Positions 8,816-61,800 of a DNA stretch of 64,000 bases are shown in pieces. Numbering within the stretch: position 1 is the stretch's first letter; each line of letters begins with the position of its first letter. Both the position numbers and the translations under genes were made by a program. The DNA comes from a virus, in the UHGV virus genome UHGV-0218015. The stretch is one strand, 5' to 3'. Under the pieces are notes generated by a model that ran no database searches, was not told where the DNA came from, and worked only from the letters and a program-made list of their open reading frames with translations.

Positions 8816-9343
8816 ATGGCATATCGTGTCGATTTAACGAAAGCACCTAAACAAATTTTAGTAGACCGGATTAACTACGTATTTAGTCTATCCTATACTG
8901 CTGATAACATCGAGTTTAACGCAAACGGCGTTCAACCACTAACTTTAGCAGAACGCCAACGTTACGGACTAGAATCAAAGGTTGCTGCCGTCTTCCGTAA
9001 CGGCGTTGTCGGTAACCAGGAATTCATTTTAACTCGCGTTGATTTGGCAACGTTCTTGGCCGATGAACCGGTGAGTGTACCGAAAGGCGCAGTAACGTCC
9101 AGCGAAGAGTTGGCTGATTATATCGTCGCACAAACAGGGCTCGACCTGCGTGCCGACGACATTATGATTGAGCCGATTTCAGAGGAACTGGATTCTTATG
9201 ATGTTCGTCTCGTCCCGAATCATTTGTCTTTTAAAGGAACGATTCCGGTCGTATTTACTGATTCCACTCCACGCAAATTGGCGTCTCTTGTGACGAAATT
9301 GGCGTTGGATGGGTTCCGCCCAGGAGAATTAATCAATGTCTAA
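8816..9343 (+). CDS. hypothetical protein (175 aa)
   Basis: ORF 8 nt after previous stop, same-strand array. Confidence 0.5.
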   Translation: MAYRVDLTKAPKQILVDRINYVFSLSYTADNIEFNANGVQPLTLAERQRYGLESKVAAVFRNGVVGNQEFILTRVDLATFLADEPVSVPKGAVTSSEELADYIVAQTGLDLRADDIMIEPISEELDSYDVRLVPNHLSFKGTIPVVFTDSTPRKLASLVTKLALDGFRPGELINV

Positions 9344-10223
9344 TGTCAAAGTTTACGACGGTAAACTCTCGACGGTAACGCTTAATGCGATGCGTTTAGC
9401 TACCGCATTAATTACCGGTGCTGACGTGCAATACCCACAAAAATCCACACTGAATGAGTTCTATAAACTCATGCAAACGCCAGTGCCGGATGGTAAAGCG
9501 CGTCCTCATTTGCAGTACATGGCAATTGGCAACCGTGGTCATATGGTCGACACCTCTGATGTGGTGGCTGACGTTGTACCTGTAGGTAAAGAACCTATTG
9601 CTTCCGGGATGTTTTCCCGCGTTCCGTTTGTCCTGCGTACAAAAGACAATGATCTGTCTGACGAACAGCGTAAGAAATACGCCTTCCGTACTCTGGAAAC
9701 CATCAATAAACGTCAGTATTGGGCGTATTACTTAAAACGTATCGACATGCGTGCTGTAAAAACGTCAGACTACGATATCAAGCGTGAGAACGGCGTTGAG
9801 ACGGTCGAAGACTTTGTGTACACAGACACGGAATTAAACCCCGTGCCGAAAGTATTGCCGGATTACGATTACGATGACGATGGTACTGTCGCAATTCCAG
9901 ACGGACGTTATGTCGAATCTGGTGCTGACCTGGTTATTCCGTGGACAGACTTTGATGTTCAGGAATACATGCACGTAACGAGCATTATGCGTGGTAGTCC
10001 GCGTAGTTCAATTATCTCTGAACTGGCACTCTGTTCTGGGTTAGACCAGGTAGCGTCCGGGGATTCTGCAGCTGGGTCTAAATTCAGCTATAACGAGGCG
10101 ATTGGGGTCCAGGCGCTGTACTATATTTCGATGTTTACCAACCTGGCACAGACGAATGACAAACTGTCTTTGACCATTCGCATCGGACAACCTGCGCCGT
10201 TCTTCCTGGGGACAGCTAACTGA
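9336..10223 (+). CDS. hypothetical protein (295 aa)
   Basis: ORF overlaps upstream stop by 8 nt (translational coupling). Confidence 0.5.
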   Translation: MSNVKVYDGKLSTVTLNAMRLATALITGADVQYPQKSTLNEFYKLMQTPVPDGKARPHLQYMAIGNRGHMVDTSDVVADVVPVGKEPIASGMFSRVPFVLRTKDNDLSDEQRKKYAFRTLETINKRQYWAYYLKRIDMRAVKTSDYDIKRENGVETVEDFVYTDTELNPVPKVLPDYDYDDDGTVAIPDGRYVESGADLVIPWTDFDVQEYMHVTSIMRGSPRSSIISELALCSGLDQVASGDSAAGSKFSYNEAIGVQALYYISMFTNLAQTNDKLSLTIRIGQPAPFFLGTAN

Positions 10224-49514: not shown

Positions 49515-50045
49515 ATGGCTAAAACTTTTCAACAGCAGCTTATCGAACTTATTAACACTAAAAACAGCTCTCTGAGCTCCGCTCTCACCGTAGCTGATGT
49601 TGACTTTAGTGCTGTCGCTGACTTCACCGGAGAAGCTGGCCGCAACACTAAAATTACTCTGACCGCCAAGGCAGAAAGCCAGAACTTCAAAGGCGAGAAA
49701 GAATTCCACTATACTCGTCTTTCCTGCGACATCGTTGGTGAAGTTGAAGTAACTGCACCTACTACCGATTTCGATTCACCAACGAAAATCCTGGCAAAAG
49801 TTAACGCAGCCATGGCTGAGAAAGGGTACACCGATGACGAGTTCGGTGAAAACGACCTGCAAACTATTTCCCGTGAAGAAGAAGGCAAAACCATTTACGT
49901 AGTAACTGTTGTGGCTGGACACCTGAAGTTCCTGCCAGGTACTGTTGCAACGTATAAAGTTACTCCTCCGGCTATTGAGAAAGTAGTATTGAACGGTTTG
50001 GAAGGTGAACTGGATGGCTTCACCGCACCAGCGCCTAAAGAGTAA
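49515..50045 (+). CDS. member 3 of paralog family (176 aa)
   Basis: FQQQLIELINTKNSSLSSALTVADVDF...NTKITLTAKAESQNFKGEKEFHYTRL parallels 50113 product. Confidence 0.55.
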   Translation: MAKTFQQQLIELINTKNSSLSSALTVADVDFSAVADFTGEAGRNTKITLTAKAESQNFKGEKEFHYTRLSCDIVGEVEVTAPTTDFDSPTKILAKVNAAMAEKGYTDDEFGENDLQTISREEEGKTIYVVTVVAGHLKFLPGTVATYKVTPPAIEKVVLNGLEGELDGFTAPAPKE

Positions 50046-50112: not shown

Positions 50113-50643
50113 ATGGCAGCTACTAACCAGATGATGTTAGTTGCGCTTTATAATGCTGCTAACACAGAGCTACCGCATCAGGTCACTGATAAAGAGGTAA
50201 CTTTTGGTCAACCTGTCGCTCTTGAAAAGGGCGATAAAAATACCAAAGTTACCATGACCGCACGTACAGAGTCTGAAAATTTTAAAGGCGCAATCGAACT
50301 GCATTACGATCGTCTGGAACCTGGCGTTATCGGACGCATTGAGGTAACGGACGATTTGGCTCTCTGGACTGGAGAAAACGAACTACGCGACCGATTACAG
50401 TTCTACATCAATAAAGTAAAACCTGACGACTCTATCGCGCCTGGTGACGTTGAGTACACCACCGAAGACCAGAAAGACGAACACGATAGCGTCACTCTGC
50501 GTACGGTAACTTGTACCGTTACTGAAAAGAACCTCCGTTATAAACCGGGTGTAATGGCAACTTTCGTAATTACGCCGAAAGTTGTTGATAATCGTATTGA
50601 CCTGGCCACCACCGACGGTGAACTTGACGGCTTTACTGCTTAA
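50113..50643 (+). CDS. member 4 of paralog family (176 aa)
   Basis: NQMMLVALYNAANTELPHQVTDKEVTF...NTKVTMTARTESENFKGAIELHYDRL. Confidence 0.55.
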   Translation: MAATNQMMLVALYNAANTELPHQVTDKEVTFGQPVALEKGDKNTKVTMTARTESENFKGAIELHYDRLEPGVIGRIEVTDDLALWTGENELRDRLQFYINKVKPDDSIAPGDVEYTTEDQKDEHDSVTLRTVTCTVTEKNLRYKPGVMATFVITPKVVDNRIDLATTDGELDGFTA

Positions 50644-50667: not shown

Positions 50668-50720
50668 AAAATAATAAGTTTACCTACCTCCTTTACGGAG
50701 GTAGGTACTTTTTTATTTTA
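50668..50720. terminator. bidirectional terminator between convergent + and - gene blocks
   Basis: Stem TACCTACCTCC / TTTAC / GGAGGTAGGTA flanked by an A-run upstream and TTTTTTATTTTA downstream. Confidence 0.8.
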
Positions 50721-51387
50721 TCCCCATTTCCAAAGCGTACGCTCGGATGGTATCATAATCACGCCGCTCGGCTAAAAGCCGAAGCTCTTTTTTCTGCTCG
50801 GTTTTCTGCCCATGCAATTTCTGATCACGTTTCACAATCGCTGCCATCAGTTCTTTGCATTGTTCCAACGTGAACGGTTCTATTCGTGCATTCGACGTAT
50901 CCAACCAATATTCCGGGGCGGTTTCAGACTGAATATACTGACTTAACATCTGTCGCGATGCGTCGTCTGTTTGGAAATAACACCCATTTAACTTAATGGG
51001 TGCATAACGCTGTTCCTCATAAAGACGTTCCATCTCTATCATGATTTTCTGAACATCTTGATAGATATAACGTGCAGTTGATCGAACGTTGTTTCGTATT
51101 TCTTCTAAATCAATCTCAAGAACATCAGCGATAAATTCTTTCGCTTTCTGTAGAGTGAAATTAGCCTCAATCTCCGACATATCGTAACTACGCATCTGTT
51201 CGATTGCGGCCTTATCTTCCAACCCATCGATTAATTTGTAGTGTAGAAGCGCACAAAAACCCGCACGACCACGATCCTCGTTGCCAATTCGTTCCATGTA
51301 ATTACCGTGGCGATCGATTGGAAGCCCTCGTGAGAAATAACGTTGACGTATTTCCTCTTTCGTTAAGCCTTCGTCAATAACAGACAT
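50713..51387 (-). CDS. hypothetical protein (224 aa), last gene of the rSAM/Cys-rich operon
   Basis: - strand ORF overlapping upstream gene by 25 nt; ends at bidirectional terminator. Confidence 0.5.
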   Translation of the reverse strand: MSVIDEGLTKEEIRQRYFSRGLPIDRHGNYMERIGNEDRGRAGFCALLHYKLIDGLEDKAAIEQMRSYDMSEIEANFTLQKAKEFIADVLEIDLEEIRNNVRSTARYIYQDVQKIMIEMERLYEEQRYAPIKLNGCYFQTDDASRQMLSQYIQSETAPEYWLDTSNARIEPFTLEQCKELMAAIVKRDQKLHGQKTEQKKELRLLAERRDYDTIRAYALEMGIK

Positions 51388-51935
51388 TCATCTTCTCCTT
51401 TAACTAAACCTAGCTCAATTAACAATTCAAAATCGATTTGGCGAAATTTGTTATCAAAACCAGAATCCCAATCGATGTGTAATCCTTGTCGTTCTTCATC
51501 GGTAAGTTCAGGATAAATTAAATCATGGAACGCTTCACGTTCCTCGTAAAATCCATCGATAGTAGAATCTGGATTCCGCATTGCGTAAATCGTGATGCCC
51601 GGAAAGGATAATCCTAATGCTGTTATAGATTCGACGCTTGGTTCTTGCAAGGCCCTGCGTAATAGCACGATTTTATGTCGTGGAAAATCTAGTACACGTT
51701 GTTCAAACCCAGGATTCCGTTTCTCAATTTCTGTAACTGAAAGATCGGTGAGTTCTGTGCAATACATTGGGATAACTACAGTTACTCCGTGGCGAATTAA
51801 TAATCGTTTAACATCGTCAGTGAAGTCTTCACCATTAATTTGCACATAACAACCAAACAATTTTGTAGTTTCTAAAAATTTTTCCAGAAAACGGAATTTA
51901 CGCTTCGTAATATTGTGGATCAGAATTGGCTTCAT
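51363..51935 (-). CDS. hypothetical protein (190 aa) in rSAM/Cys-rich operon
   Basis: - strand ORF overlapping the SPASM rSAM gene end by 38 nt. Confidence 0.5.
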   Translation of the reverse strand: MKPILIHNITKRKFRFLEKFLETTKLFGCYVQINGEDFTDDVKRLLIRHGVTVVIPMYCTELTDLSVTEIEKRNPGFEQRVLDFPRHKIVLLRRALQEPSVESITALGLSFPGITIYAMRNPDSTIDGFYEEREAFHDLIYPELTDEERQGLHIDWDSGFDNKFRQIDFELLIELGLVKGEDECLLLTKA

Positions 51936-53220
51936 CTTTGGTTTCTCTCAATTGTTTTTCTTTCTGGGTACGTTCACGTACGCAACGAGGGCAATAACAC
52001 ATGCTATTGTCATGAAAATCTTTCACTGACGTCGTGCCCATTTTCTGTTTCCAATATTCCGCAACCATCAACTTTGCAGTTGTCCAGCCGCATTGACGGC
52101 GTTCAGCGTGATAAGCTTTGCGATCTTCTAGCGTCCCTTCTCCATTCTCGTAAGATGCAGCCGCACAACTACCACAAGCGTGCTTCATTGGACAACCTAA
52201 ACAGGTTTCAGGATAGTTGGTGTATTGCGTCTGAATCTCTTCCAGCAATTTCCCGTCATCTAAGCTAACGAATTCCCGGCCAACTAATTCAAATACGGCA
52301 GAACGTGATGTTACGGTTGACATGAAACGGTTACAACCGAAGATCTTACGATCAAATCCTAAGCAGGTCATGTGTGTTAACGTACCGCAGAACGGGCGTA
52401 AACGTTCTGGATTCAAACGTACAGTATCGTTATACAATAACTGATCACGCCAGTTTGGTTCCCAGATAGTATCAAAATCTAACCCGTCTGGAATGATGTG
52501 CGACAAAGTGTTACGTGGGTTGGTGTGTAAGCCCTTCTCAACCCAATAATCAACCACGTCCATCATCTGCAATGCGATTGAAGTAGCCATGCTCCGTGGC
52601 ATAATGTCTTCGAAGGTTACGTTGCCAGAAATAGTTCCGCCGCCAGTAATATCAATTAATGATTTCATTCCAGCAGCATAGAACGGTAACGTTTCCAACG
52701 TAAAGGTCGCTTTTACACCAAGTTCTGCAATACCGACTTCTTTTAAGTAGTTATAGCCCCGCACAGCGGCCTCGTAAGATCCTTCACGAGTTGTTGTAAA
52801 AATCCGGTACTTATCGTGCGATTCGGGCAATCCATCAATAGACACGCCGATAGAAAGCCTGTCTTTCCAACGTTCAATAATTTCTCTATTCAAAGGTCTA
52901 TCTAACAACGTTCCGTTAGTAGAGATGCTAAACATAAACGGCCGATTATGTTTTTCGCATAACTCTTCTGCGGTTTCAAATGCCGCCTTTAATAGTTTAG
53001 GCTGCATAAACGGCTCACCACCGATGATATCGATAACGACCTCGATGTTTGTCAGATCTTTATCTCGTTCAAAACAAGCGTGTAGAAAATCAACAATATC
53101 CGCCGCTTTGTTATTACGGGGATACTTACGTTCGTAACAATACTCACAGTCCAAGTTACACGATAAATTTGTAACAATTTGATAAGTCAGTTGTTTTGGA
53201 TAACTATTTTCTTGACTCAT
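51898..53220 (-). CDS. radical SAM enzyme with C-terminal SPASM-like auxiliary Cys cluster domain (440 aa), putative peptide-modifying maturase
   Basis: N-terminal CNLDCEYC (C-x3-C-x2-C), GGEP SAM-binding motif, C-terminal CGTLTHMTC...GC and CLGCPMKHACGSC (C-x2-C-x5-C-x2-C) clusters. Confidence 0.8.
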   Translation of the reverse strand: MSQENSYPKQLTYQIVTNLSCNLDCEYCYERKYPRNNKAADIVDFLHACFERDKDLTNIEVVIDIIGGEPFMQPKLLKAAFETAEELCEKHNRPFMFSISTNGTLLDRPLNREIIERWKDRLSIGVSIDGLPESHDKYRIFTTTREGSYEAAVRGYNYLKEVGIAELGVKATFTLETLPFYAAGMKSLIDITGGGTISGNVTFEDIMPRSMATSIALQMMDVVDYWVEKGLHTNPRNTLSHIIPDGLDFDTIWEPNWRDQLLYNDTVRLNPERLRPFCGTLTHMTCLGFDRKIFGCNRFMSTVTSRSAVFELVGREFVSLDDGKLLEEIQTQYTNYPETCLGCPMKHACGSCAAASYENGEGTLEDRKAYHAERRQCGWTTAKLMVAEYWKQKMGTTSVKDFHDNSMCYCPRCVRERTQKEKQLRETKDEANSDPQYYEA

Positions 53221-54142
53221 TTTCCGCCCCTCTATTACGCTCTGCCATCACTACACGACGAATGTACTCGTAAGCTTCTACACCTATTGAGGAGGCTAGT
53301 TGGTTACACCCTGCTTTTGTAGTTATTGGTACATTTTTAAGTTGGTTTTCTTCCCCGTCCGCGTCTATCCTGAGACTTTCGCTACAGACATTACAAGCAT
53401 GATCGAAGAATCTGTTTACAATAAAACCGCAGTCTCTAGAATTTAGAACGTTTAATCTTTCTATATTCTCCTGAATTCTAAAATACCCGTAAATAAAGTT
53501 CATAACGTGATCGGGAGATAACGGTTTTGGCATGTTTTTATCTAGTAATAAGGACATGGAACGAAAACCGTAATGATAGATAGCAGTATGTAATTGAATG
53601 ATATCTTCATGCCATCTTTTGTTGGATAAATTCTCCCTCGTAACAACAGCCCAAGTGTTAACATTATTCAAGCTGTAAATTACTTCTAACGCTTCATGAC
53701 AATTATCATCAATAAAGCGCTTAAAAGGCCGTTCGGAAAGATTAAACCCATCGATGCTAACATATATAGCATCGAATTGTTTTAACAACGGTAGATGCGA
53801 TTTACGCATTTTTAAACCGTTCGTGAACATCTGGTGTTTGAGTTCAGGACGGATCGTTTTTAATTCGTCGACAAACGCCTCAATCTTTCGAGTTGCCAGT
53901 AGCGGTTCACCGCCAGTCCACTGAATTTCAGTAATGGTTGGGTTAGACGCCAACGCTTTCAAAATTCGTTCACGTTGAAACTCTCGCGGAGAATCTTCAC
54001 GATGCATGTAATAGGCTCCGCCGCAGAAGCTACAGTCCAGATTACATTTGGATGTAGCAACTACGGACAATACGGTGGGTTTATTGTATAAACGATTCGA
54101 TAACCTTGGCTCTACGTCGGTTGTCATTGCAGGTGAGTCCAT
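53204..54142 (-). CDS. radical SAM enzyme (312 aa), paralog of 56177..57091
   Basis: SKCNLDCSFCGG (C-x3-C-x2-C), QWTGGEPLL; C-terminal C-x12-C-x2-C; three nucleotide-identical patches with the paralog. Confidence 0.8.
   Translation of the reverse strand: MDSPAMTTDVEPRLSNRLYNKPTVLSVVATSKCNLDCSFCGGAYYMHREDSPREFQRERILKALASNPTITEIQWTGGEPLLATRKIEAFVDELKTIRPELKHQMFTNGLKMRKSHLPLLKQFDAIYVSIDGFNLSERPFKRFIDDNCHEALEVIYSLNNVNTWAVVTRENLSNKRWHEDIIQLHTAIYHYGFRSMSLLLDKNMPKPLSPDHVMNFIYGYFRIQENIERLNVLNSRDCGFIVNRFFDHACNVCSESLRIDADGEENQLKNVPITTKAGCNQLASSIGVEAYEYIRRVVMAERNRGAENESRK
53457..53539. repeat. 83-nt patch 100% identical to 56421..56503 (between radical SAM paralogs)
   Basis: CTTTCTATATTCTCCTGAATTCTAAAATACCCGTAAATAAAGTTCATAACGTGATCGGGAGATAACGGTTTTGGCATGTTTTT present in both genes; further identical patches 53782..53818 = 56747..56783 and 54002..54055 = 56966..57019. 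Confidence 0.85.
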
Positions 54143-54149
54143 CTATTTT

Positions 54150-55037
54150 TTAAATATAGCCAATGGATAACAAAGGATCGTCGTAAGCGTTAACTCCAGG
54201 TTTTAATACAAACGGTGAATTGTAAGCCTCAATAATACGATTAAGGTCTTTATAACGCACGTTTAAACGTTCTAGATCCGCTAACGTTACGTTACGTTCC
54301 AATACCGCCGACACTGCCGCTTTTTCTTCATCAGTTAACGTGACTTTCGTCATTAAGAAACTAACAAGTTTCGCTAAATCTGCTTCCGATGACGGATGTT
54401 CACCAATACGTGTTTGAATTAAATGCTGCATCCATGGTTTACGAATACGTTTTGTGATTTCATGTTCATCTGTAAGGGCAACCCATACTGAACGTTCACG
54501 ATCCCACATAAATTTGTAACTGTACGCCATCAGATCTGCTAAACAGTTGATGCCAAGTTCCTCGTAACCTTCTATTTCAATATACGGTTCAGTATCAACA
54601 TAGTTTTTTGTTTCTACAGGAACCAGGGCATAAAAGTACGGGAATGAACCAAGATAGTCTGGAGACCACCAACGTCGTGCTACAGGCTTCGCATTCAACT
54701 CTTTAAATGGCGTAAAGAACAATTCCAAATCTACAGAATTATTCAGAATACCGTCACTAAAGAAATATTTACCGTCAACCAATTTACCGCGTAAATCTGA
54801 ATCACCGGTAAACACCACTACGCTTTCTGCTGTCAGATCGCGTATTTTAAAAGTGTTTTCTACTGAATAGTTATTGCGATCGGTAAAAAAACGACCACGC
54901 ACTTTGGGCCATTCGCCAGGTAACTGGGTTAACAAACGAACTTTATCTTCCAAATGAGCGCGTATTGAATCGGGGGAAGAAATATGAAGTGGGTGGTTGA
55001 AAATTGTTTTATAGGCTAAATGCAAATCGTTTTTCAT
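54150..55037 (-). CDS. hypothetical protein (295 aa) in rSAM/Cys-rich operon
   Basis: - strand ORF, 7 nt downstream gap to rSAM gene. Confidence 0.5.
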   Translation of the reverse strand: MKNDLHLAYKTIFNHPLHISSPDSIRAHLEDKVRLLTQLPGEWPKVRGRFFTDRNNYSVENTFKIRDLTAESVVVFTGDSDLRGKLVDGKYFFSDGILNNSVDLELFFTPFKELNAKPVARRWWSPDYLGSFPYFYALVPVETKNYVDTEPYIEIEGYEELGINCLADLMAYSYKFMWDRERSVWVALTDEHEITKRIRKPWMQHLIQTRIGEHPSSEADLAKLVSFLMTKVTLTDEEKAAVSAVLERNVTLADLERLNVRYKDLNRIIEAYNSPFVLKPGVNAYDDPLLSIGYI

Positions 55038-55049
55038 TGATTACTCCAA

Positions 55050-55568
55050 TTATTTTACGGTCAATCTGACGTTCAAGGTATAGAACCCGCCACGCCATTG
55101 CCTGCCGGTAACTTCAAATTCTGCAGTAAAGCCGTTTGATTTACTCGGTTGCTGCTTAATCGCCATGCTTCCGCCGGAATTACTTAATACTTCTAATGAG
55201 ATAGAAGCAGAAGATGCATTACCGATAGAGTCTATCTTAAAACTAGCCGCGTCTGTAAAATTAACAGTGATACCATTACCCATTGCAACTTGAGGGTAGG
55301 CGTAGGACTTTCCAGACAGTAACGATTTAAAGACCCTTATCGGTTTCTCTCTACCGGTTGACGTTACGCATTGAATAAAGACAGCCCCAGTAGAGAAATT
55401 GATACGAACAGTATCTTTAGCGTGTAGCTTAGACTCAACATAAACAACGGCTTTGTTGTCGTAGGTTGGTCTTGAAGGGGTTGGCGTAGAACCACCGCTA
55501 GAGGGCTTACTTACCCCCCCCCGCCCCCTTACTACAGCTACCGCTGCACGACCAACTACATCCGCCAT
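55050..55568 (-). CDS. hypothetical protein (172 aa) with Gly/Ser/Pro-rich N-terminal linker; 5' end overlaps Cys-rich peptide gene C across a G-homopolymer
   Basis: Only in-frame ATG is at 55568, 62 nt inside gene C; N-terminal codons span GGGGGCGGGGGGGGG (C9-G-C5 on + strand, 55514-55528). Confidence 0.4.
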   Translation of the reverse strand: MADVVGRAAVAVVRGRGGVSKPSSGGSTPTPSRPTYDNKAVVYVESKLHAKDTVRINFSTGAVFIQCVTSTGREKPIRVFKSLLSGKSYAYPQVAMGNGITVNFTDAASFKIDSIGNASSASISLEVLSNSGGSMAIKQQPSKSNGFTAEFEVTGRQWRGGFYTLNVRLTVK

Positions 55569-55716
55569 TACAATTATAATGACTTAAAGGTAATCCTGCG
55601 AGATTGTTGGTTGAGGAAACCGTTCCTTGGTTTGCAATATAGTTGTTTGCATTAGCGGTGGTGATATATCCCTCCGCCGTTACTAATCTGTCGCGTATGT
55701 TTTTAAGACTTATCAT
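55507..55716 (-). CDS. Cys-rich peptide C (69 aa): conserved leader plus short C-x-x-x repeat core; putative RiPP precursor
   Basis: MISLKNIRDRL leader; core HYNCNGGCSWSCSGSCSK parallels peptides A and B; starts 3 nt after the stop of peptide B. Confidence 0.55.
   Translation of the reverse strand: MISLKNIRDRLVTAEGYITTANANNYIANQGTVSSTNNLAGLPLSHYNCNGGCSWSCSGSCSKGAGGGK
55514..55528. repeat. homopolymeric tract C9-G-C5 (+ strand) at the junction of peptide C and the 172-aa ORF
   Basis: TTACCCCCCCCCGCCCCCTT read directly from sequence. Confidence 0.9.
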
Positions 55717-55719
55717 TTC

Positions 55720-56118
55720 TTATCTTCCAGTACACGATTGCTGACATCCGCCTCGACATGAACCTGAACATGTTCCGGTGCAACTACTTGAACAACCGCC
55801 CGAGCAATTACCTGTGCACCCTCCTGAGCAGGTACTGCTACAACCTGTGCAACCTGTACTACATCCTGAAACACAGTTCGCTGAACAGGAAGAACCGCAG
55901 CCGCCGGAGGCGTTGCCGGTACAGCCGCCCGAACAACTTGAGCACGTCCAGCTACAGCTACCTCCACAGTCATAGTGATTTCTCGGCTGTCCTCCAAACA
56001 GATCGCTATTATTAGTGGCTTTACCACGAATATAGTTCTGCACCGCACCTGTATTTTTTAATGCAGTAGAGTCTATGTTATCTAGCCGGGCCTTTAAAGA
56101 AGATAAACCAATCGCCAT
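55720..56118 (-). CDS. Cys-rich peptide B (132 aa): about 50-aa leader plus (C-x-x-x)n core with about 21 Cys; putative RiPP precursor
   Basis: Leader LSSLKARLDNID...; core DCGGSCSWTCSSCSGGCTGN...CSGGCSSSCTGTCSGSCRGGCQQSCTGR with Cys at nearly every fourth position. Confidence 0.65.
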   Translation of the reverse strand: MAIGLSSLKARLDNIDSTALKNTGAVQNYIRGKATNNSDLFGGQPRNHYDCGGSCSWTCSSCSGGCTGNASGGCGSSCSANCVSGCSTGCTGCSSTCSGGCTGNCSGGCSSSCTGTCSGSCRGGCQQSCTGR

Positions 56119-56176
56119 TTTAATACCTACTGGTTTAGTGCCCCCTAGGACACATTATAATTCACTTTCTGTAAAA

Positions 56177-57091
56177 TTATCGTAGTTTTTCTGAGACTCT
56201 ATTCTTAGCCCCTACCACACGACGTATATAGTCGTAAGCATCTAATCCAACCTTTCTGGCCAAGTCACTACAGCCGTGTTGCGTTACGATTTCAACGTTC
56301 TTTACTTGGTTCTGGGCACCGTCAGACTCAATGCGAAAACAACGACTACATGTGTTACAGGGTTCATCAAATAACGCATTTAGCGTAAACGCACATTCAC
56401 TTCGATTGGACGAATTCAGTCTTTCTATATTCTCCTGAATTCTAAAATACCCGTAAATAAAGTTCATAACGTGATCGGGAGATAACGGTTTTGGCATGTT
56501 TTTGTCCAAAACCAGCGACATCTCACAAAAACCATAATGGTAAATGTGGTTATGTAACGCAATTATATCTTCGTACCAACGTTTATCCCCAATACGCTCG
56601 CGTGTCAAAACCGCCCAAGTACGAATATTTTTCAATTCGTAAATTGTCTCCAAAACCTCGTATTGTTTTTCTTCGATAATCCGCATGAACGGACGCTCTG
56701 ATTCTTTGAATCCATCCATGCTAAAAAAGATACTATCAAAACCCTTTAACAACGGTAGATGCGATTTACGCATTTTTAAACCATTGGTATACAGGTAATG
56801 TTCGCAACGAGGATACTTCTCCCTTATCTCTTCTATAAGGGTATCAATTTTACGCGTGGCAAGTAATGGTTCGCCCCCTGACCATTGGATATTTGTGATA
56901 GTCGGGTTATTTTCCAGCGCCTCGATAATACTTTCCTTTTGTACTTCTGCGGTTGTATCCTCTCTATGCATGTAATAGGCTCCGCCGCAGAAGCTACAGT
57001 CCAGATTACATTTGGATGTTGTAATCACGTTTAACGTTCTCGGATTACTGTAAAGCTTATCGGATACCGTCGGTCTAGTAAGTTCTTCCAT
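56177..57091 (-). CDS. radical SAM enzyme (304 aa), paralog of 53204..54142
   Basis: SKCNLDCSFCGG, QWSGGEPLL; shares identical nucleotide patches and PKPLSPDHVMNFIYGYFRIQENIERLN with the paralog. Confidence 0.8.
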   Translation of the reverse strand: MEELTRPTVSDKLYSNPRTLNVITTSKCNLDCSFCGGAYYMHREDTTAEVQKESIIEALENNPTITNIQWSGGEPLLATRKIDTLIEEIREKYPRCEHYLYTNGLKMRKSHLPLLKGFDSIFFSMDGFKESERPFMRIIEEKQYEVLETIYELKNIRTWAVLTRERIGDKRWYEDIIALHNHIYHYGFCEMSLVLDKNMPKPLSPDHVMNFIYGYFRIQENIERLNSSNRSECAFTLNALFDEPCNTCSRCFRIESDGAQNQVKNVEIVTQHGCSDLARKVGLDAYDYIRRVVGAKNRVSEKLR

Positions 57092-57110
57092 TCGAATTGA
57101 TCCTTATTTT

Positions 57111-57506
57111 TTATGGGTTAGAACAACCACCTGCACAAGAACCACTACACCCCGAGGAACAACGTCCAGCACATCCCCCACTACAAGTCCCACTACATCC
57201 TGAACAACCACCCGAACACGTTCCGCTACAACCACTGCATTGATTACCACACGCAGAGGAACAGCTTCCTACGCACACCGATGTACATGTACCTGAACAA
57301 CTCGTACAACCATGCGTACAACCGTTTGAGCATGTCCAGCTACAGCTACCTCCACAATCTAATCGACCGGGTGTCCAACCTGAAAATGAATCAGCAGCGT
57401 TATGTGCTTTCGACGCAACTTGCGGATCAACACGTGGGCCAGTTGCCATTTGGTTCTCTACGTTGGTGATTCGGTCACGCACATTTTTAACACTGATCGC
57501 CATCAC
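57111..57506 (-). CDS. Cys-rich peptide A (131 aa; ATG at 57503 likely start): leader plus (C-x-x-x)n core with about 23 Cys; putative RiPP precursor
   Basis: Leader MAISVKNVRDRITNVENQ; core DCGGSCSWTCSNGCTHGCTSCSGTC...CSGGCAGRCSSGCSGSCAGGCSNP; AAGGA RBS. Confidence 0.65.
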   Translation of the reverse strand: MMAISVKNVRDRITNVENQMATGPRVDPQVASKAHNAADSFSGWTPGRLDCGGSCSWTCSNGCTHGCTSCSGTCTSVCVGSCSSACGNQCSGCSGTCSGGCSGCSGTCSGGCAGRCSSGCSGSCAGGCSNP

Positions 57507-57570: not shown

Positions 57571-58770
57571 TTATTTCGTACCTGCTTCTGCCTGAACGTC
57601 ATCACGGGACGTCAGGTTAGCGTTAACGTGTACTGAAGCCTGAACCACACCACCGTATTTCTTGTGGAGATAACCTGTGTGTGGGTTATCTGCCGCAATA
57701 TGGTTTTGTAGGTTCTGATTCGCCTGACTGATTGCGTTCGTGTTATTCGCAACCTGTTGTTTAAGCGCATCCAAGTTTTGTTGCAGATTATCAATTTTCT
57801 GATCGGTCTCATTACCCCGCTGTTCTAACGCAGCAATGCGCTGAATCGCTTGGTTGAGTTTGGTGTTCAGATCGTTGATATTTTTCTGTAACTGTAACAC
57901 TAACGAGTTTAGGTTCGCCAGCGCCAGTGCCATTTTCTGATAGTTTTGTGCAACGACGTTAAGTTGGTCGTTCCACGCTTCCAGAGATTTGACAACAGCA
58001 TCAATACGTTTTCCTAACGCTTCGTCCGCTTTCTTCAATGCATTGATATCGGCAATCGTTGCATCAATGGCTGTCTGAACACTGCGAATTAAAGCGCGGA
58101 TCTCCGTTTCCGTTAACCCGTTAACCTGATGAATATCCAGATGGTGGACATTACCAGTAGAGTTAATGTGCGCGTTCAGCGCGTCCAGGAAATCGTTTTT
58201 CAGGCTATCGAGAATCGCTTTGATGTTCTCAAGCTGTACAGCATCACCCGCAGTTATCGCATCTTTAATGCCAGCGAGCACTGTAATGATATATTCGAAG
58301 CCGTAAATATCACCGACGTCTTTATACGTTGGTGCTGAAGGAAACGTGTCCGGCACATTTCGCAAGTCTTTAAAGCCAACAGTTCGATTATCGAGTTTCA
58401 ACTCGGCAATCGCTTGCTCAATCGCGGTCACATTTGCAGACTGAGGACCACCAACTACTTGCGCCGATACCGTGATATCGGTCGGAATCGCGGTGTTCGT
58501 TACAACAACCGCCATTACCACTTCCCGGTTCTTCGTCAATTTCTCATAAGCCGGGTGTGCAAAAATCAGTTCATAGTCCGTTCCACGCTCATATGTCGCT
58601 CCAGGTCGATTGGCAACCCGCAAGCGGAACGTATCGGCATAAAACGGACCATCAGGGAAAGCAAACGCACGGTTAACTTTGCCTGTACCTAACGTAATCT
58701 GACGCTCCACGGCGTTAGAGGTTAGGGTTCCCGTTAAATCTAAAGGGTATTGGTATACAATGGAGGCCAT
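57571..58770 (-). CDS. fibre-like structural protein with long C-terminal coiled coil (about 399 aa from ATG 58770; track ORF extends to 58896)
   Basis: AAGGAGAG RBS 6 nt upstream of ATG 58770; N-terminal FPDGPFY motif shared with the 1728-aa protein; heptad-rich region (LEQRGNETDQKIDNLQQNLDALKQQV). Confidence 0.6.
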   Translation of the reverse strand: MASIVYQYPLDLTGTLTSNAVERQITLGTGKVNRAFAFPDGPFYADTFRLRVANRPGATYERGTDYELIFAHPAYEKLTKNREVVMAVVVTNTAIPTDITVSAQVVGGPQSANVTAIEQAIAELKLDNRTVGFKDLRNVPDTFPSAPTYKDVGDIYGFEYIITVLAGIKDAITAGDAVQLENIKAILDSLKNDFLDALNAHINSTGNVHHLDIHQVNGLTETEIRALIRSVQTAIDATIADINALKKADEALGKRIDAVVKSLEAWNDQLNVVAQNYQKMALALANLNSLVLQLQKNINDLNTKLNQAIQRIAALEQRGNETDQKIDNLQQNLDALKQQVANNTNAISQANQNLQNHIAADNPHTGYLHKKYGGVVQASVHVNANLTSRDDVQAEAGTK

Positions 58771-58810: not shown

Positions 58811-61800
58811 TTAAGATGTAAACATAAGATTGAACTGGAGTTTATCGATATCGCGAGTTTGTGCTGGGTTAACCGCATCGTACGTGGTTGCCACATAGAC
58901 CGTTAACGTGCCGTCAGAATACGCGGTTTTCACCGGTGGTGTAGTCCCTGTCTGTCCATCAGTTACAATGACGACAGGTTGAGCCGGGAGTTGACGAAAC
59001 TGACTCTTAACCGCTTTATAGACCAAACCAGATTGTGCCGCTTGCTCTGTGGCGGTGTACACGATAAACGGTGTGTCGATATCTGTCTGTTTAATGACAG
59101 TGTTCGTCTCAACGTCAATCAGCTGAACAGCACCAAATTTGGTCCGGTAACTATCGTATTCATTTTTTGGAATGACAAACGTAGCATGAAGGCGGACTTC
59201 GGCGGCTGGCTTAAATCCCGCGTGTTCTTTTTCCAGGTAACTGTTAGCAGTTAGCGTTACTGTCTGTTCAGTCATCGTACCGCCAGACTGATTTAGCCCG
59301 TAACGAACTTGAGTTATACCTGTCGGGGCCGCAAGCCTGATTTTCAGTCTACGATTAGCAGTACCAGGATCGCCAGGTACTTTAACACGCAGACTCAATG
59401 CCAGATATGCATACTCGCCAGTAGTCGGTTTCGTATACGCGCCCAACCACTTCATGTTCGCGGTTGCTGCTTGTTTGTTCTCAGAAGCAGTAGCCGCTGC
59501 AACGTTCGCAGCAACCGCTTTCTGCCAGAACTGGTCAGCGCAGTTCTCATACGCCACCCTGCTGATACTTTTATAACCTGAATAGGTTTCCTGTACCGGC
59601 AACCTGGAACGTGTTGTAATCCCGGACAACGTATTCCATTTCTGACCATCGACATACCCAGCACCCTTGCTCGCAGATGCTGTAACGACTTTAACGGGTT
59701 TATTAACCAGCGTTAATAGTGGGCCAGTTTTCCTGTCGAATGCCTGCGCCACATCGTGTTGATCAACAATCGATGCATGATTTTCCAGCTCTTTTACGCG
59801 ACCTAACCGTTTTACTTTATCGATACTGATATCCGTAATACGGTTCGAATCAGTGGTTACAGTCCCAACAAACAGTCTCGACGAGGTATCAGCTAACTGC
59901 TCTAAACCGATGCGGTATTGGGCAGTAGAACCGACCACTTCAGCATAAACGTAGAACGTCTGGTTAGCATGATTAGTCGGGAATTCATCGCTTAAATCAA
60001 CGGACCATCTTGGAACGGTATATCTTTTATTTCCAAAACTTAACTCGGTTTCCTCCGTCAGATAGAAATTCCAACCGCTCTGTGTTTGTACGCCGCCAAT
60101 AATAATCTTATCGATAACAGTATATTTTTTGTTAAACAAATCAGAGATTCTATACTGTTCGCCACCGAGATACAACTCGTTTAAATCTTCCGAGTTACAA
60201 GTCAATAGCGCGATGCCCGAGAGATCGGGTATATAGACTTCAGATGTATTATTCAGCTTATACGTATAGCCCCACGCCCGATGAATTTCGCCGGTAAACC
60301 ATTCGCCTTTTTTAGTCAAGTTTATCCCAAAAGCAAAAGAAATCTCTGATCCTACAAGATTCCCACCAACCAGGTTATGTATTGAGAATCTGAACTTTTG
60401 TCCGTCTTGCGAATAAAGGAAAACTTGACCGGAGCGTTGTTTAAGTTCACCATTAAAAGCTGTGGGTGAGAGATTAATGGCGTTACTGGCCACTTTTTCC
60501 CTGAACGTCATCATTCTCGCTTCCGAACTAACGAACCTTATGACCCCGTTGGTTATAGTCGGTTTTACCTGAAAGAAGTAAAAAGCAAACTTATTTACCC
60601 CGTCAGTGTCTTTATAGATAAGACTCACTATCGCGATACAAAGCGGACCACCAGACATCGTTTGACCAAGCACCCAAAAGGACAAACTGTAGTTGTTCTT
60701 TTTGGTCTTAGCTACGCTAATCCGCTCATAGGCGTTGCCGTTAGATGCCCCGGAGAACTGGCTGGACTGAACAATATTAGTCAGCTTCGCCCATTCTGCC
60801 GCATCGATAGACAACCGATCACTACCCACCGTAGTGGTACCGTAAACAACTGTACACGGTTTACTTTCGGCACCGATAAAATAAGCCCCTTCTAGTAGGC
60901 CGTTCGGTATTTCTGGCGTAACAACCAGCGGTATATTTGTCAATATGCCGTATTCGTTCGCTGTTTTTTCAACACGGCGGGATGTTGGTCCAAAACCACC
61001 GTATCCAGGATAACCATAGGTCGTATTTTTATCATATTCGGCTTCAATGAAATAAGCCGATTTTTGATGTTTAAGCCATACTTTGTTTGTTCCTGGGAAG
61101 AACAATGGGAAGGTCATAGACGGTTTCCACACCGAACCCACCACAGGGTTTATCCGATTTTCAAACGTAGATTGCCCCTCATACCCCACACTCAACTTAA
61201 CATAGTCCAGATAACTAACTCCTTCTGGGAGTTTCTGGTAATGGAGAGATGGTGCGAGTTGTTTTTCTGTCGAACAGCAGCAAGAATAAACCATATCACC
61301 GACACAGATTCTATTGTCGGCCATATAGCCAGAACTTCGAGTAGCCCATTTCCATTTCAGCTCTATTTTTGTTCCGTCTTTTAAGTAACAACCTGTAGTA
61401 TCGATTTTGATTGGGAAGACGTTAGTTGTCTCTAACCCAACCTCCCCGGTTAATAGGTCAAGACGATAAGCACCATTCCATGGCCCGAATGTGGTACCTT
61501 TCGTTGAAGAAAAACCAAGACAAACACCAGACACGCCGACGGTTAACAAGTGACCGTCCTTAACAACGGGCGTTATCCATCTTGACGACCCTCTAGTTAA
61601 TTGTAAGTTCACTGTCCACAACGCTTTGCCTTCCGCAGTGAAGTAGGCAAGACGCTTCGTATTCGGATTATCTACATCGAACGCGCCAGGTTCAACCAAA
61701 TCGGCACACTTACCGATTTTTCGTGTAGACCTTAAATCAACCTGTTCAAACCGATCGGTTTTATTAAGCCGCAATAAGCCAACACGGAACATGGGTTGTG

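Follow-up and report, generated by a model that had tools for sequence, protein, structure and literature searches.

A radical SAM and cysteine-repeat module at the end of a fiber operon

In the virus genome UHGV-0218015, of which one strand of a 64,000-nt stretch was analyzed (here called the window; positions without a label refer to it), a long minus-strand operon runs on from two fiber-type genes and ends, at 50713..57506, in a module of radical S-adenosylmethionine (rSAM) enzymes, cysteine-repeat proteins, and accessory proteins (Table 1). A preliminary description of this DNA had named ten minus-strand open reading frames (ORFs) in this region and had read them as a pathway for a sactipeptide- or ranthipeptide-type peptide made by ribosomes and modified posttranslationally (RiPP). 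All ten ORFs were found, but one of them, a 172-aa ORF at 55050..55568, proved not to be an independent gene (see below). At the DNA level the window is absent from the phage collection searched, where its best match reached 75% identity across 19% of the region; it is nevertheless related to the jumbo phages of the SPN3US-like group.

Full-length homologs of the SPASM-type rSAM enzyme of the module were found in 64 records, from phages of Salmonella, Erwinia, Cronobacter, Escherichia, and Proteus, and in 60 of the 64 the N-terminal domain of cysteine-repeat protein A was detected as well. The core of the module (A-B-C, p295, a small rSAM enzyme, the SPASM enzyme, p190, and the DUF4376 protein) is kept in ~60 deposited genomes. 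In all SPN3US-, Erwinia-, and IMG/VR-type jumbo phage loci analyzed, drawn from the ~60 carrying records, the genes follow the constant order gp168-like, gp167-like, A, B, C, p295, small rSAM, SPASM rSAM, p190, DUF4376. Specific to the window are a second small rSAM gene between A and B and an insert of ~450 nt after C. A distant phage contig (L012) retains a seven-gene unit of A, B, C, p295, small rSAM, SPASM, and p190; on that contig, a protein resembling the Acb2/Tad1 hairpin is encoded just upstream of the module (L012 9220..9441) and a GroEL-like chaperonin a few kilobases downstream of it (L012 16515..18131).

Table 1. Features of the module and of the adjoining part of the operon
Feature	Position	Strand	Remarks
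Fiber-type gene, 1728 aa	58811..63997	-	Upstream in the operon; SPN3US gp168-like
Coiled-coil virion protein, SPN3US gp167 ortholog	57571..58770	-	77% identity; directly upstream of A; start probable (see text)
Cys-repeat protein A, 130 aa, 21 Cys	57111..57503	-	49-aa N-terminal junction domain plus 81-aa ladder
Additional small rSAM enzyme, 304 aa	56177..57091	-	Paralog of 53204..54142
Cys-repeat protein B, 132 aa, 20 Cys	55720..56118	-	
Cys-repeat protein C (pepC), 69 aa, 4 Cys	55507..55716	-	Junction domain plus first CxxxCSWxC motif only
Poly-G tract	55514..55522	-	9 G on coding strand, 3' end of pepC
Start-less +1-frame ORF	55050..55506	-	Pro/Ser/Thr/Gly linker plus ~130-aa beta-rich domain
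p295 (phrog_8030)	54150..55037	-	Conserved accessory protein
Small radical SAM enzyme, 312 aa	53204..54142	-	SPN3US gp164 ortholog, 64% identity
Radical SAM/SPASM enzyme, 440 aa	51898..53220	-	SPN3US gp163 ortholog, 82% identity
p190 (phrog_7988)	51363..51935	-	Jumbo-phage version of the module only
DUF4376 protein, 224 aa	50713..51387	-	Last operon gene; PF14301, 2.8e-9; phrog_8169
Hairpin	50681..50707	both	Perfect 11-bp stem, T-runs on both sides

Cysteine-repeat proteins A, B, and C are conserved genes missed by annotation

A, B, and C are paralogs with a common N-terminal domain of 49 to 50 aa followed by the motif C-(G/N)-G-(S/G)-C-S-W-(S/T)-C, which in A and B extends into a ladder, mainly CxxxC, of Gly, Ser, and Thr. 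CxxxC spacing accounts for 17 of the 20 Cys-Cys gaps in A; Cys makes up ~26% of the A core versus 1.1% in the long ORFs of the window, and the cores of both A and B are free of Asp and Glu. The three proteins fall into the PHROG family phrog_6085 (A, 3e-40; C, 8e-25). Against the target model TIGR04114 (cutoff, 20 bits), A and B scored marginally, with 20.1 and 22.3 bits, and C remained below the cutoff with 13.7 bits.

Nucleotide differences from relatives were concentrated at the third codon position, with 7/6/63 differences at positions 1/2/3 for A (versus L008), 14/11/68 for B, and 3/0/30 for C (versus L010). This pile-up shows that all three genes are translated and subject to strong purifying selection. 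The three paralogous peptides of the preliminary description were thereby borne out as genes. The 130 aa of A are counted from the ATG at 57503; a GTG lies one codon further upstream, at 57506. Lengths and Cys counts of the three proteins are constant across genera, and C is the best conserved of them (84 to 97% identity across genera).

The SPN3US records contain A, B, and C without annotating them (NC_027402.1 143191..144220, equivalent to 9192..10221 of our locus L002; JN641803.1). There, on the minus strand, A occupies 143828..144220, B 143413..143817, and C 143191..143397. The annotated 111-aa hypothetical protein SPN3US_0166 (gp166; RefSeq gp100) is an alternative frame across B, and many related records have no ORF or one on the wrong strand at the site of A, B, and C. 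The corresponding 111-aa ORF over B in the window (55713..56048) was ruled out, as the third-position substitutions follow the frame of the Cys protein; we take the overlapping alternative-frame ORFs over the Cys genes to be artifacts of the repeats. A word-based search with one of the Cys peptides found a single protein, a sparse result that is probably due to gene callers seldom predicting Cys-repeat ORFs.

The module contains a TIGR04115-related SPASM enzyme and one or two small radical SAM enzymes

The identification of three rSAM enzymes, two of them paralogous, held up. All three scored above the PF04055 cutoff of 29.5 bits (56177..57091, 52.6; 53204..54142, 50.0; 51898..53220, 56.7) and bear the motif CNLDC(S/E)(F/Y)C, i.e., CX3CX2C, together with GGEP; the two small enzymes are 63% identical to each other. 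The extra small enzyme (56177..57091) was otherwise found only in two IMG/VR contigs (L008 and L009; 95% identity), while the deposited phages have a single small rSAM copy each.

In the 440-aa enzyme, the C-terminal Cys cluster reported before was confirmed as a SPASM-type pattern: Cys 278, 286, 296, 340, 343, 349, 352, and 377 were invariant among six diverse homologs, and the protein additionally ends in a CxCxxC tail. Its best NCBIfam profile was TIGR04115, a family of radical SAM peptide maturases with CXXX-repeat targets (118.9 bits against a cutoff of 350; E 3e-34), with the alignment spanning profile positions 3 to 345 of 359, and the second best was PapB (E 2e-33; score likewise far under the cutoff). 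By the curated threshold, the window enzyme is thus a divergent relative of TIGR04115 rather than a member. Relatives scored higher against the same profile: 135 bits for L012, 186 and 215 bits for two lambda-like elements (L018, which comes from a bacterial genome, and L017), and 654 bits for a locus of a gut-phage type (L058), whose enzyme is a full member. The sole solved structure matched by the sequence of the window enzyme was CteB (PDB 5WGG), from CteB residue 105 onward. The peptide-recognition domain of CteB is located in its N-terminal region, and the start of the alignment therefore places the phage enzyme without that region. In one SPFM2 record, automatic annotation labels the SPASM gene AlbA.

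The nearest solved relatives of the small rSAM enzymes by sequence were SkfB (E 2.6e-5) and YydG, with the similarity restricted to the core. The small enzymes matched no NCBIfam family above its cutoff (NF033640, 37 to 39 bits against a cutoff of 170). Three invariant C-terminal cysteines, C250, C253, and C279, suggest a twitch-like auxiliary site; a SPASM domain was not recognizable. Housekeeping identities were rejected: profiles for QueE, NrdG, MoaA, and anSME, as well as viperin, scored far under their cutoffs and below the peptide-maturase profiles. The proposal that the module pairs maturases with adjacent substrates was likewise supported, with TIGR04115 and PapB as the best profiles for the SPASM enzyme and with A and B at the TIGR04114 cutoff.

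A motif of the form C-x(1-3)-C-[ST]-W-[STN]-C is common to very different Cys-repeat proteins, including those of the window, of L012, L017, L018, and L039 to L041, and of the gut-phage type, and it also occurs in phages lacking a small rSAM gene (for example, at L058 5781..6578). A maturase may recognize the motif, or the motif may take part in a cross-link involving Trp. Targeting of the C-x3-C-S-W motif by the small rSAM enzyme was tried as an explanation and failed in a co-occurrence test: the counts were 22 for the enzyme with the motif, 0 for the enzyme without the motif, 30 for the motif without the enzyme, and 17 for neither, and the motif is present in gut-phage proteins from phages without the small enzyme.

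The cysteine ladder forms the C-terminal end of tail-fiber proteins in other phages

A profile of the N-terminal domain and first Cys motif, built from 16 A, B, and C sequences, was run against 1.84 billion representative proteins and gave 47 matches, comprising short proteins like A, B, and C and, in addition, proteins of 185 to 475 aa in which the match lies C-terminally and is followed by a Cys ladder of 40 to 90 aa. In one of these (P0089), residues 1 to 125 matched tail and tail-fiber PHROGs (phrog_1640, 3.7e-31) and residues 308 to 398 matched phrog_6085 (4.8e-11); another (P0069) combined a tail-collar-fiber match with phrog_6085, and a third (P0075) contained a collagen-like minor-tail segment. 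A C-terminal phrog_6085 match was found in P0089, P0069, P0072, P0075, and P0080, each together with a tail or tail-fiber PHROG (weak in P0072 and P0080), as well as in P0077, encoded in L018 after a gpJ-like gene. A pre-Cys profile, from which the Cys part had been trimmed, still scored 18 of the 23 long proteins higher than any of the 97 decoys, at low scores of 6 to 17 bits; most of the signal therefore resides in the junction motif and the ladder.

The genomic context of these proteins points in the same direction. In L018, genes for a tape measure protein, a gpM-like protein, an NlpC/P60 protein, and a gpJ-like protein are followed by a 475-aa Cys-tailed fiber, a small rSAM enzyme, two p295-like proteins, a SPASM enzyme, and lysis genes; L017 has the order fiber, p295-like, small rSAM, SPASM, endolysin, integrase. 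Comparison of the window with L018 and L017 yielded E values of 1e-63 and 7e-56, respectively, for the SPASM enzyme and of 4e-7 and 5e-6 for the small rSAM enzyme. Elsewhere, a central tail fiber J (4e-167; L039), a 1076-aa tail fiber (L042), or another tail-fiber protein (L079) is encoded directly upstream, and L067 has an endolysin gene downstream.

A scan of viral contigs with an alignment of the SPASM enzyme gave 78 loci, and in 65 of them a same-strand Cys-repeat ORF of 64 to 806 aa, with up to 71 ladder Cys, lies just upstream of the SPASM homolog. The common gut-phage type, represented by L058, has these genes after baseplate wedge genes: first two for Cys-repeat proteins, then a 109-aa ORF, the SPASM gene, a 240-aa ORF, and a gene for a 760-aa protein with weak matches to tail-fiber PHROGs. 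A scan of bacterial genomes found Cys-repeat ORFs at 7 of 80 loci, a figure that serves only as a rough negative control, since the back-translated patterns were too generic and retrieved mostly unrelated SPASM enzymes. On one contig of a Bacillota metagenome-assembled genome, two loci (L101 9402..10721 and L103 9412..9994) have a SPASM gene followed by two or three tandem peptides of 55 to 75 aa with a common leader (NLFGFKKIH...NGY) and a ladder of 8 to 12 Cys; they are a classical RiPP-style counterpart of the phage system.

Accessory proteins

The predicted structure of p295 (mean predicted local distance difference test [pLDDT] score of 86) had no fold relative, its top but weak structural match being a fiber chaperone. 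Diverged p295 proteins also occur in the prophage fiber modules (E 5e-9 in L018 and 8e-8 in L017). For p190, a sequence search against the PDB returned no match; its model resembles a partial beta/alpha barrel most like rSAM cores in which the cluster cysteines are missing, and p190 is a probable pseudo-enzyme. Neither the p295 nor the p190 model matched a winged-helix RiPP recognition element (RRE) or a PqqD-like fold. The DUF4376 protein gave weak tail-fiber PHROG matches (phrog_1141, tail fiber, 5e-4). These components are layered across phages: the SPASM enzyme stands alone in gut phages, the small rSAM enzyme and p295 join it in enterobacterial and lambda-like elements, and p190 is added only in jumbo phages.

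A poly-G tract may control a variable extension of protein C

The 172-aa ORF at 55050..55568 starts at an ATG that lies within conserved pepC codons. It was rejected as an independent gene because there is neither an in-frame start nor a ribosome-binding site after the pepC stop, and because a 222-kb sister phage (L099) has the corresponding region fused in frame to C. No homolog of this ORF was found in phages, and its domain had no match in a sequence search against the PDB. Independent sister assemblies whose flanking p295 is 99 to 100% identical to that of the window (L013 to L016) have runs of 9 or 10 G; downstream, some keep the domain of the window and others have another one in its place. 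In L099 the run has 11 G, a length predicted to restore the frame, and the phage encodes a 210-aa in-frame fusion (P0049) in which C is joined to yet another variant of the domain, the third. Relatedness among the three variants is slight (34% identity over 58 residues).

These comparisons suggest that the length of the poly-G tract decides whether C is read through into the downstream domain, and that 55050..55506 is a probable conditional and swappable C-terminal extension of C. Domains that contact the host tend to show such behavior. The differences in G count may instead stem from homopolymer sequencing error. One of the metagenome assemblies (L013 759..1004) has an odd internal duplication of pepC near the poly-G tract, KGAGRAAVAVENARGGGK, which is due to noise in the assembly or else to additional instability of the site.

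Products of the module in SPN3US virions

Mass spectrometry of SPN3US virions detected gp167 to gp173, whereas gp161 to gp166 were absent; gp167 was found with an SC/M of 1.90 and was not flagged as a head protein (PMC5694885, PMC10052503). The absence of the enzymes and accessory proteins (gp161 to gp166) from virions fits assembly factors. The published SPN3US result tables hold annotated proteins only, and the searches behind them treated Cys as carbamidomethylated. Since annotation in the SPN3US records omits A, B, and C, their true ORFs may have been absent from the proteomic search databases.

Operon boundaries and neighboring genes

Directly upstream of A, the program-called ORF for the gp167 ortholog starts at 58896 and overlaps the end of the 1728-aa fiber gene. 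Since both the gp167 homology and the phrog_2163 alignment begin at residue 42 to 43 of this long ORF, the true start is probably the ATG at 58770, giving a protein of 399 aa. At the other end, the hairpin at 50681..50707 lies between the module and convergent plus-strand genes for head proteins, and looks like a bidirectional terminator closing the operon. The plus-strand genes include tandem 176-aa paralogs (49515..50045 and 50113..50643; 34% mutual identity), which are 48% and 38% identical, respectively, to SPN3US gp160, which ranks among the most abundant head proteins (paralog family B). The SPN3US stretch NC_027402.1 134000..152000 has one annotated gene where the window has these two.

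A putative maturation system for tail-fiber tips

We lean towards the view that the module is a maturation system for an rSAM-cross-linked tail-fiber tip or other virion appendage. A fiber part is preferred over a free antibiotic peptide because, in relatives, the Cys ladder forms the far end of true tail fibers. A, B, and C would be stand-alone versions of such a distal fiber domain, in which a short helix at the N terminus is followed by the junction N-N-x-D-L-x-G-x5-Y-x-C and the C-x3-C ladder, and would be produced in the cytoplasm late in infection, alongside the fiber genes. The SPASM enzyme would then install covalent cross-links via the ladder cysteines, likeliest, from family resemblance, thioethers between a Cys sulfur and a carbon of a neighboring residue or chain. 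Such links would stiffen a flexible tail of low complexity into a rod that withstands disulfide reduction, something that disulfides could not achieve in the reducing cytoplasm. A second modifying activity, as well as substrate-presenting or chaperone subunits, may come from the small twitch-like rSAM enzyme or enzymes, p295, and the pseudo-rSAM protein p190. Enzymes and accessory proteins would stay out of the particle. Once complete, A, B, and C, which may form a heterotrimer, would be built into the virion, where the gp167-like coiled-coil fiber is a plausible attachment site. In this phage, C may gain its variable beta-domain through a change in poly-G length. Modification of the ladder by the enzymes and its thioether chemistry are inferred, as are the place of A, B, and C in the virion, their stoichiometry, and what the small rSAM enzymes, p295, and p190 do.

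Several observations weigh against this view. The TIGR04115 family is itself defined solely in silico, and the window enzyme falls far short of both the TIGR04115 and the PapB cutoffs. Upstream of the cysteines, homology to fiber shafts is weak; the neighborhood of the module in L012 is not a tail region; and the Cys-repeat ORFs in bacterial metagenome-assembled genomes are short, multicopy peptides of 55 to 99 aa beside a SPASM gene, with a classical RiPP look.

The last two points speak for the reading of the preliminary description, in which A, B, and C are leader-core precursors of thioether-bridged peptides that are freed at lysis as a toxin, signal, or antimicrobial. The N-terminal domain followed by a Cys-rich core does resemble a precursor, and the best profiles of the SPASM enzyme are RiPP maturases. 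However, searches of the ten ORFs against Pfam, NCBIfam, and PHROGs revealed no leader peptidase, exporter, or immunity gene in the module, although a host protease could take the place of the first. An RRE was not detected with Pfam or NCBIfam either: the rSAM core stands at the very start of the SPASM enzyme, and p295 is without a PqqD-like fold. Moreover, the supposed leader is homologous to a shaft-to-tip junction of fibers and, together with the core, forms the C-terminal end of 185- to 475-aa tail-fiber proteins; phage Cys-repeat proteins reach 806 aa, C is able to carry a folded C-terminal domain, and the lengths and Cys counts of A, B, and C do not vary across genera. A sactipeptide- or ranthipeptide-type product is therefore not our leading interpretation, and we regard it as unlikely. 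The suggestion of a virion-associated cross-linked peptide, which had been raised as one option, fared better: fiber-end homology and the tail-module context favor it, with the cross-link chemistry and the location in the virion being its conjectural parts.

We consider it very doubtful that the ladders are uncross-linked metal-binding, iron-sulfur-binding, or redox proteins of a metallothionein-like kind, with the rSAM enzymes acting on the large fibers or on a host molecule. The composition rich in Cys, Gly, and Ser is like that of metal-binding proteins, and the small rSAM enzymes fit no family; yet Cys-repeat ORFs are tightly coupled to the SPASM clade (65 of 78 viral loci), the TIGR04114/TIGR04115 models were built on the same coupling with the gut-phage enzyme as a full member, and the nearest solved and curated relatives are maturases that form Cys thioethers. 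Similarly improbable, in our judgment, is an rSAM-modified intracellular factor that is never packaged, such as an anti-defense or host-takeover protein or a scaffold or chaperone for the giant fibers. The absence of the enzymes and accessory proteins from virions, the L012 module among nonstructural genes, including the Acb2-like gene, and the fiber chaperone as top, weak structural match of p295 would suit such a factor. On the other side, the Cys ladder in the prophages lies covalently within the fiber protein itself, which argues that the ladder ends up where the fiber goes.

Beyond the window, we offer more tentatively, as a possibility somewhat short of probable, that rSAM enzymes cross-link the distal Cys ladder of fibers in general, that the CXXX-repeat family is largely a widespread system for phage fiber maturation, and that in some jumbo phages a poly-G switch supplies protein C with a swappable host-contact domain. 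The rSAM annotation and the in silico pairing of TIGR04114 with TIGR04115 are already known, the rSAM genes having been annotated in SPN3US-type genomes from the first record onward; what has been missed so far are the Cys proteins and the link to fibers. In full-text literature, of which coverage was incomplete, no paper tied rSAM enzymes to phage tail fibers, to the function of SPN3US gp163/164, or to CXXX repeats, and a 2026 review of jumbo phages made no mention of rSAM enzymes or RiPPs.

If the fiber-maturation proposal holds, it would be the first posttranslational modification of a virion structural protein by a radical enzyme, in a system common to SPN3US-like jumbo myoviruses, lambda-like prophages, and gut phages. 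Radical chemistry that hardens or shapes the host-facing portion of the particle would then represent a new principle of virion assembly and a new role for SPASM maturases, to date tied to small natural products and enzyme cofactors. A database family presented as peptide maturation would be renamed, and four to five conserved and three unannotated genes in ~60 sequenced jumbo phages would gain a function. Several such phages are candidates for phage therapy or biocontrol against Salmonella and Erwinia. SPN3US, with its amber genetics and deep virion proteomics, suits testing, and Cys-ladder rods might offer protein engineers stable cross-linked scaffolds.

Comparison with known systems

Functional analogies exist in well-studied phages. 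T4 gp57A/gp38, lambda Tfa, and intramolecular chaperones are likewise nonvirion helpers encoded beside a fiber gene and required for the fiber to mature, and in the HK97 capsid an isopeptide chainmail of covalent bonds likewise hardens the particle. No homology between the module and T4 gp57A/gp38, lambda Tfa, or HK97 was detected, and to our knowledge none of these systems involves radical SAM chemistry or Cys ladders. Variation in poly-G length is reported to switch structural genes in Campylobacter phages. The pepC run likewise differs, between 9 and 11 G, among sister genomes; the pepC variation was seen between genomes.

Among rSAM enzymes, the sactipeptide synthases SkfB and AlbA and the epimerase YydG offer a comparison for the small enzymes, whose likeness to SkfB and YydG is limited to the rSAM core. 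PapB, which acts on freyrasin, and CteB, which acts on SCIFF, have the same rSAM/SPASM architecture as the 440-aa enzyme. Both enzymes join a Cys sulfur to side-chain carbons, and freyrasin contains tandem small rings. The phage system differs from them in that the cores of A and B have no Asp or Glu acceptors, the 440-aa enzyme has no N-terminal RRE, and the substrates are proteins of 130 aa with ~20 Cys or whole fibers; its scores are far under the cutoffs of these families.

Closest to the module is the pair TIGR04115/TIGR04114, which was defined by comparative genomics together with the related target models TIGR04117 and TIGR04118, and for which we found no biochemical characterization of the TIGR04115 family in the literature covered, which was incomplete. 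As in that pair, the SPASM gene of the window lies beside proteins with a Cys at every fourth residue. The module of the window adds one or two small rSAM enzymes, p295, and a putative pseudo-rSAM protein to this plan; its targets bear the fiber-junction domain, and its genes are part of a tail-fiber operon. Whereas the name of TIGR04115 implies a peptide product, the targets in phages are proteins of up to 806 aa.

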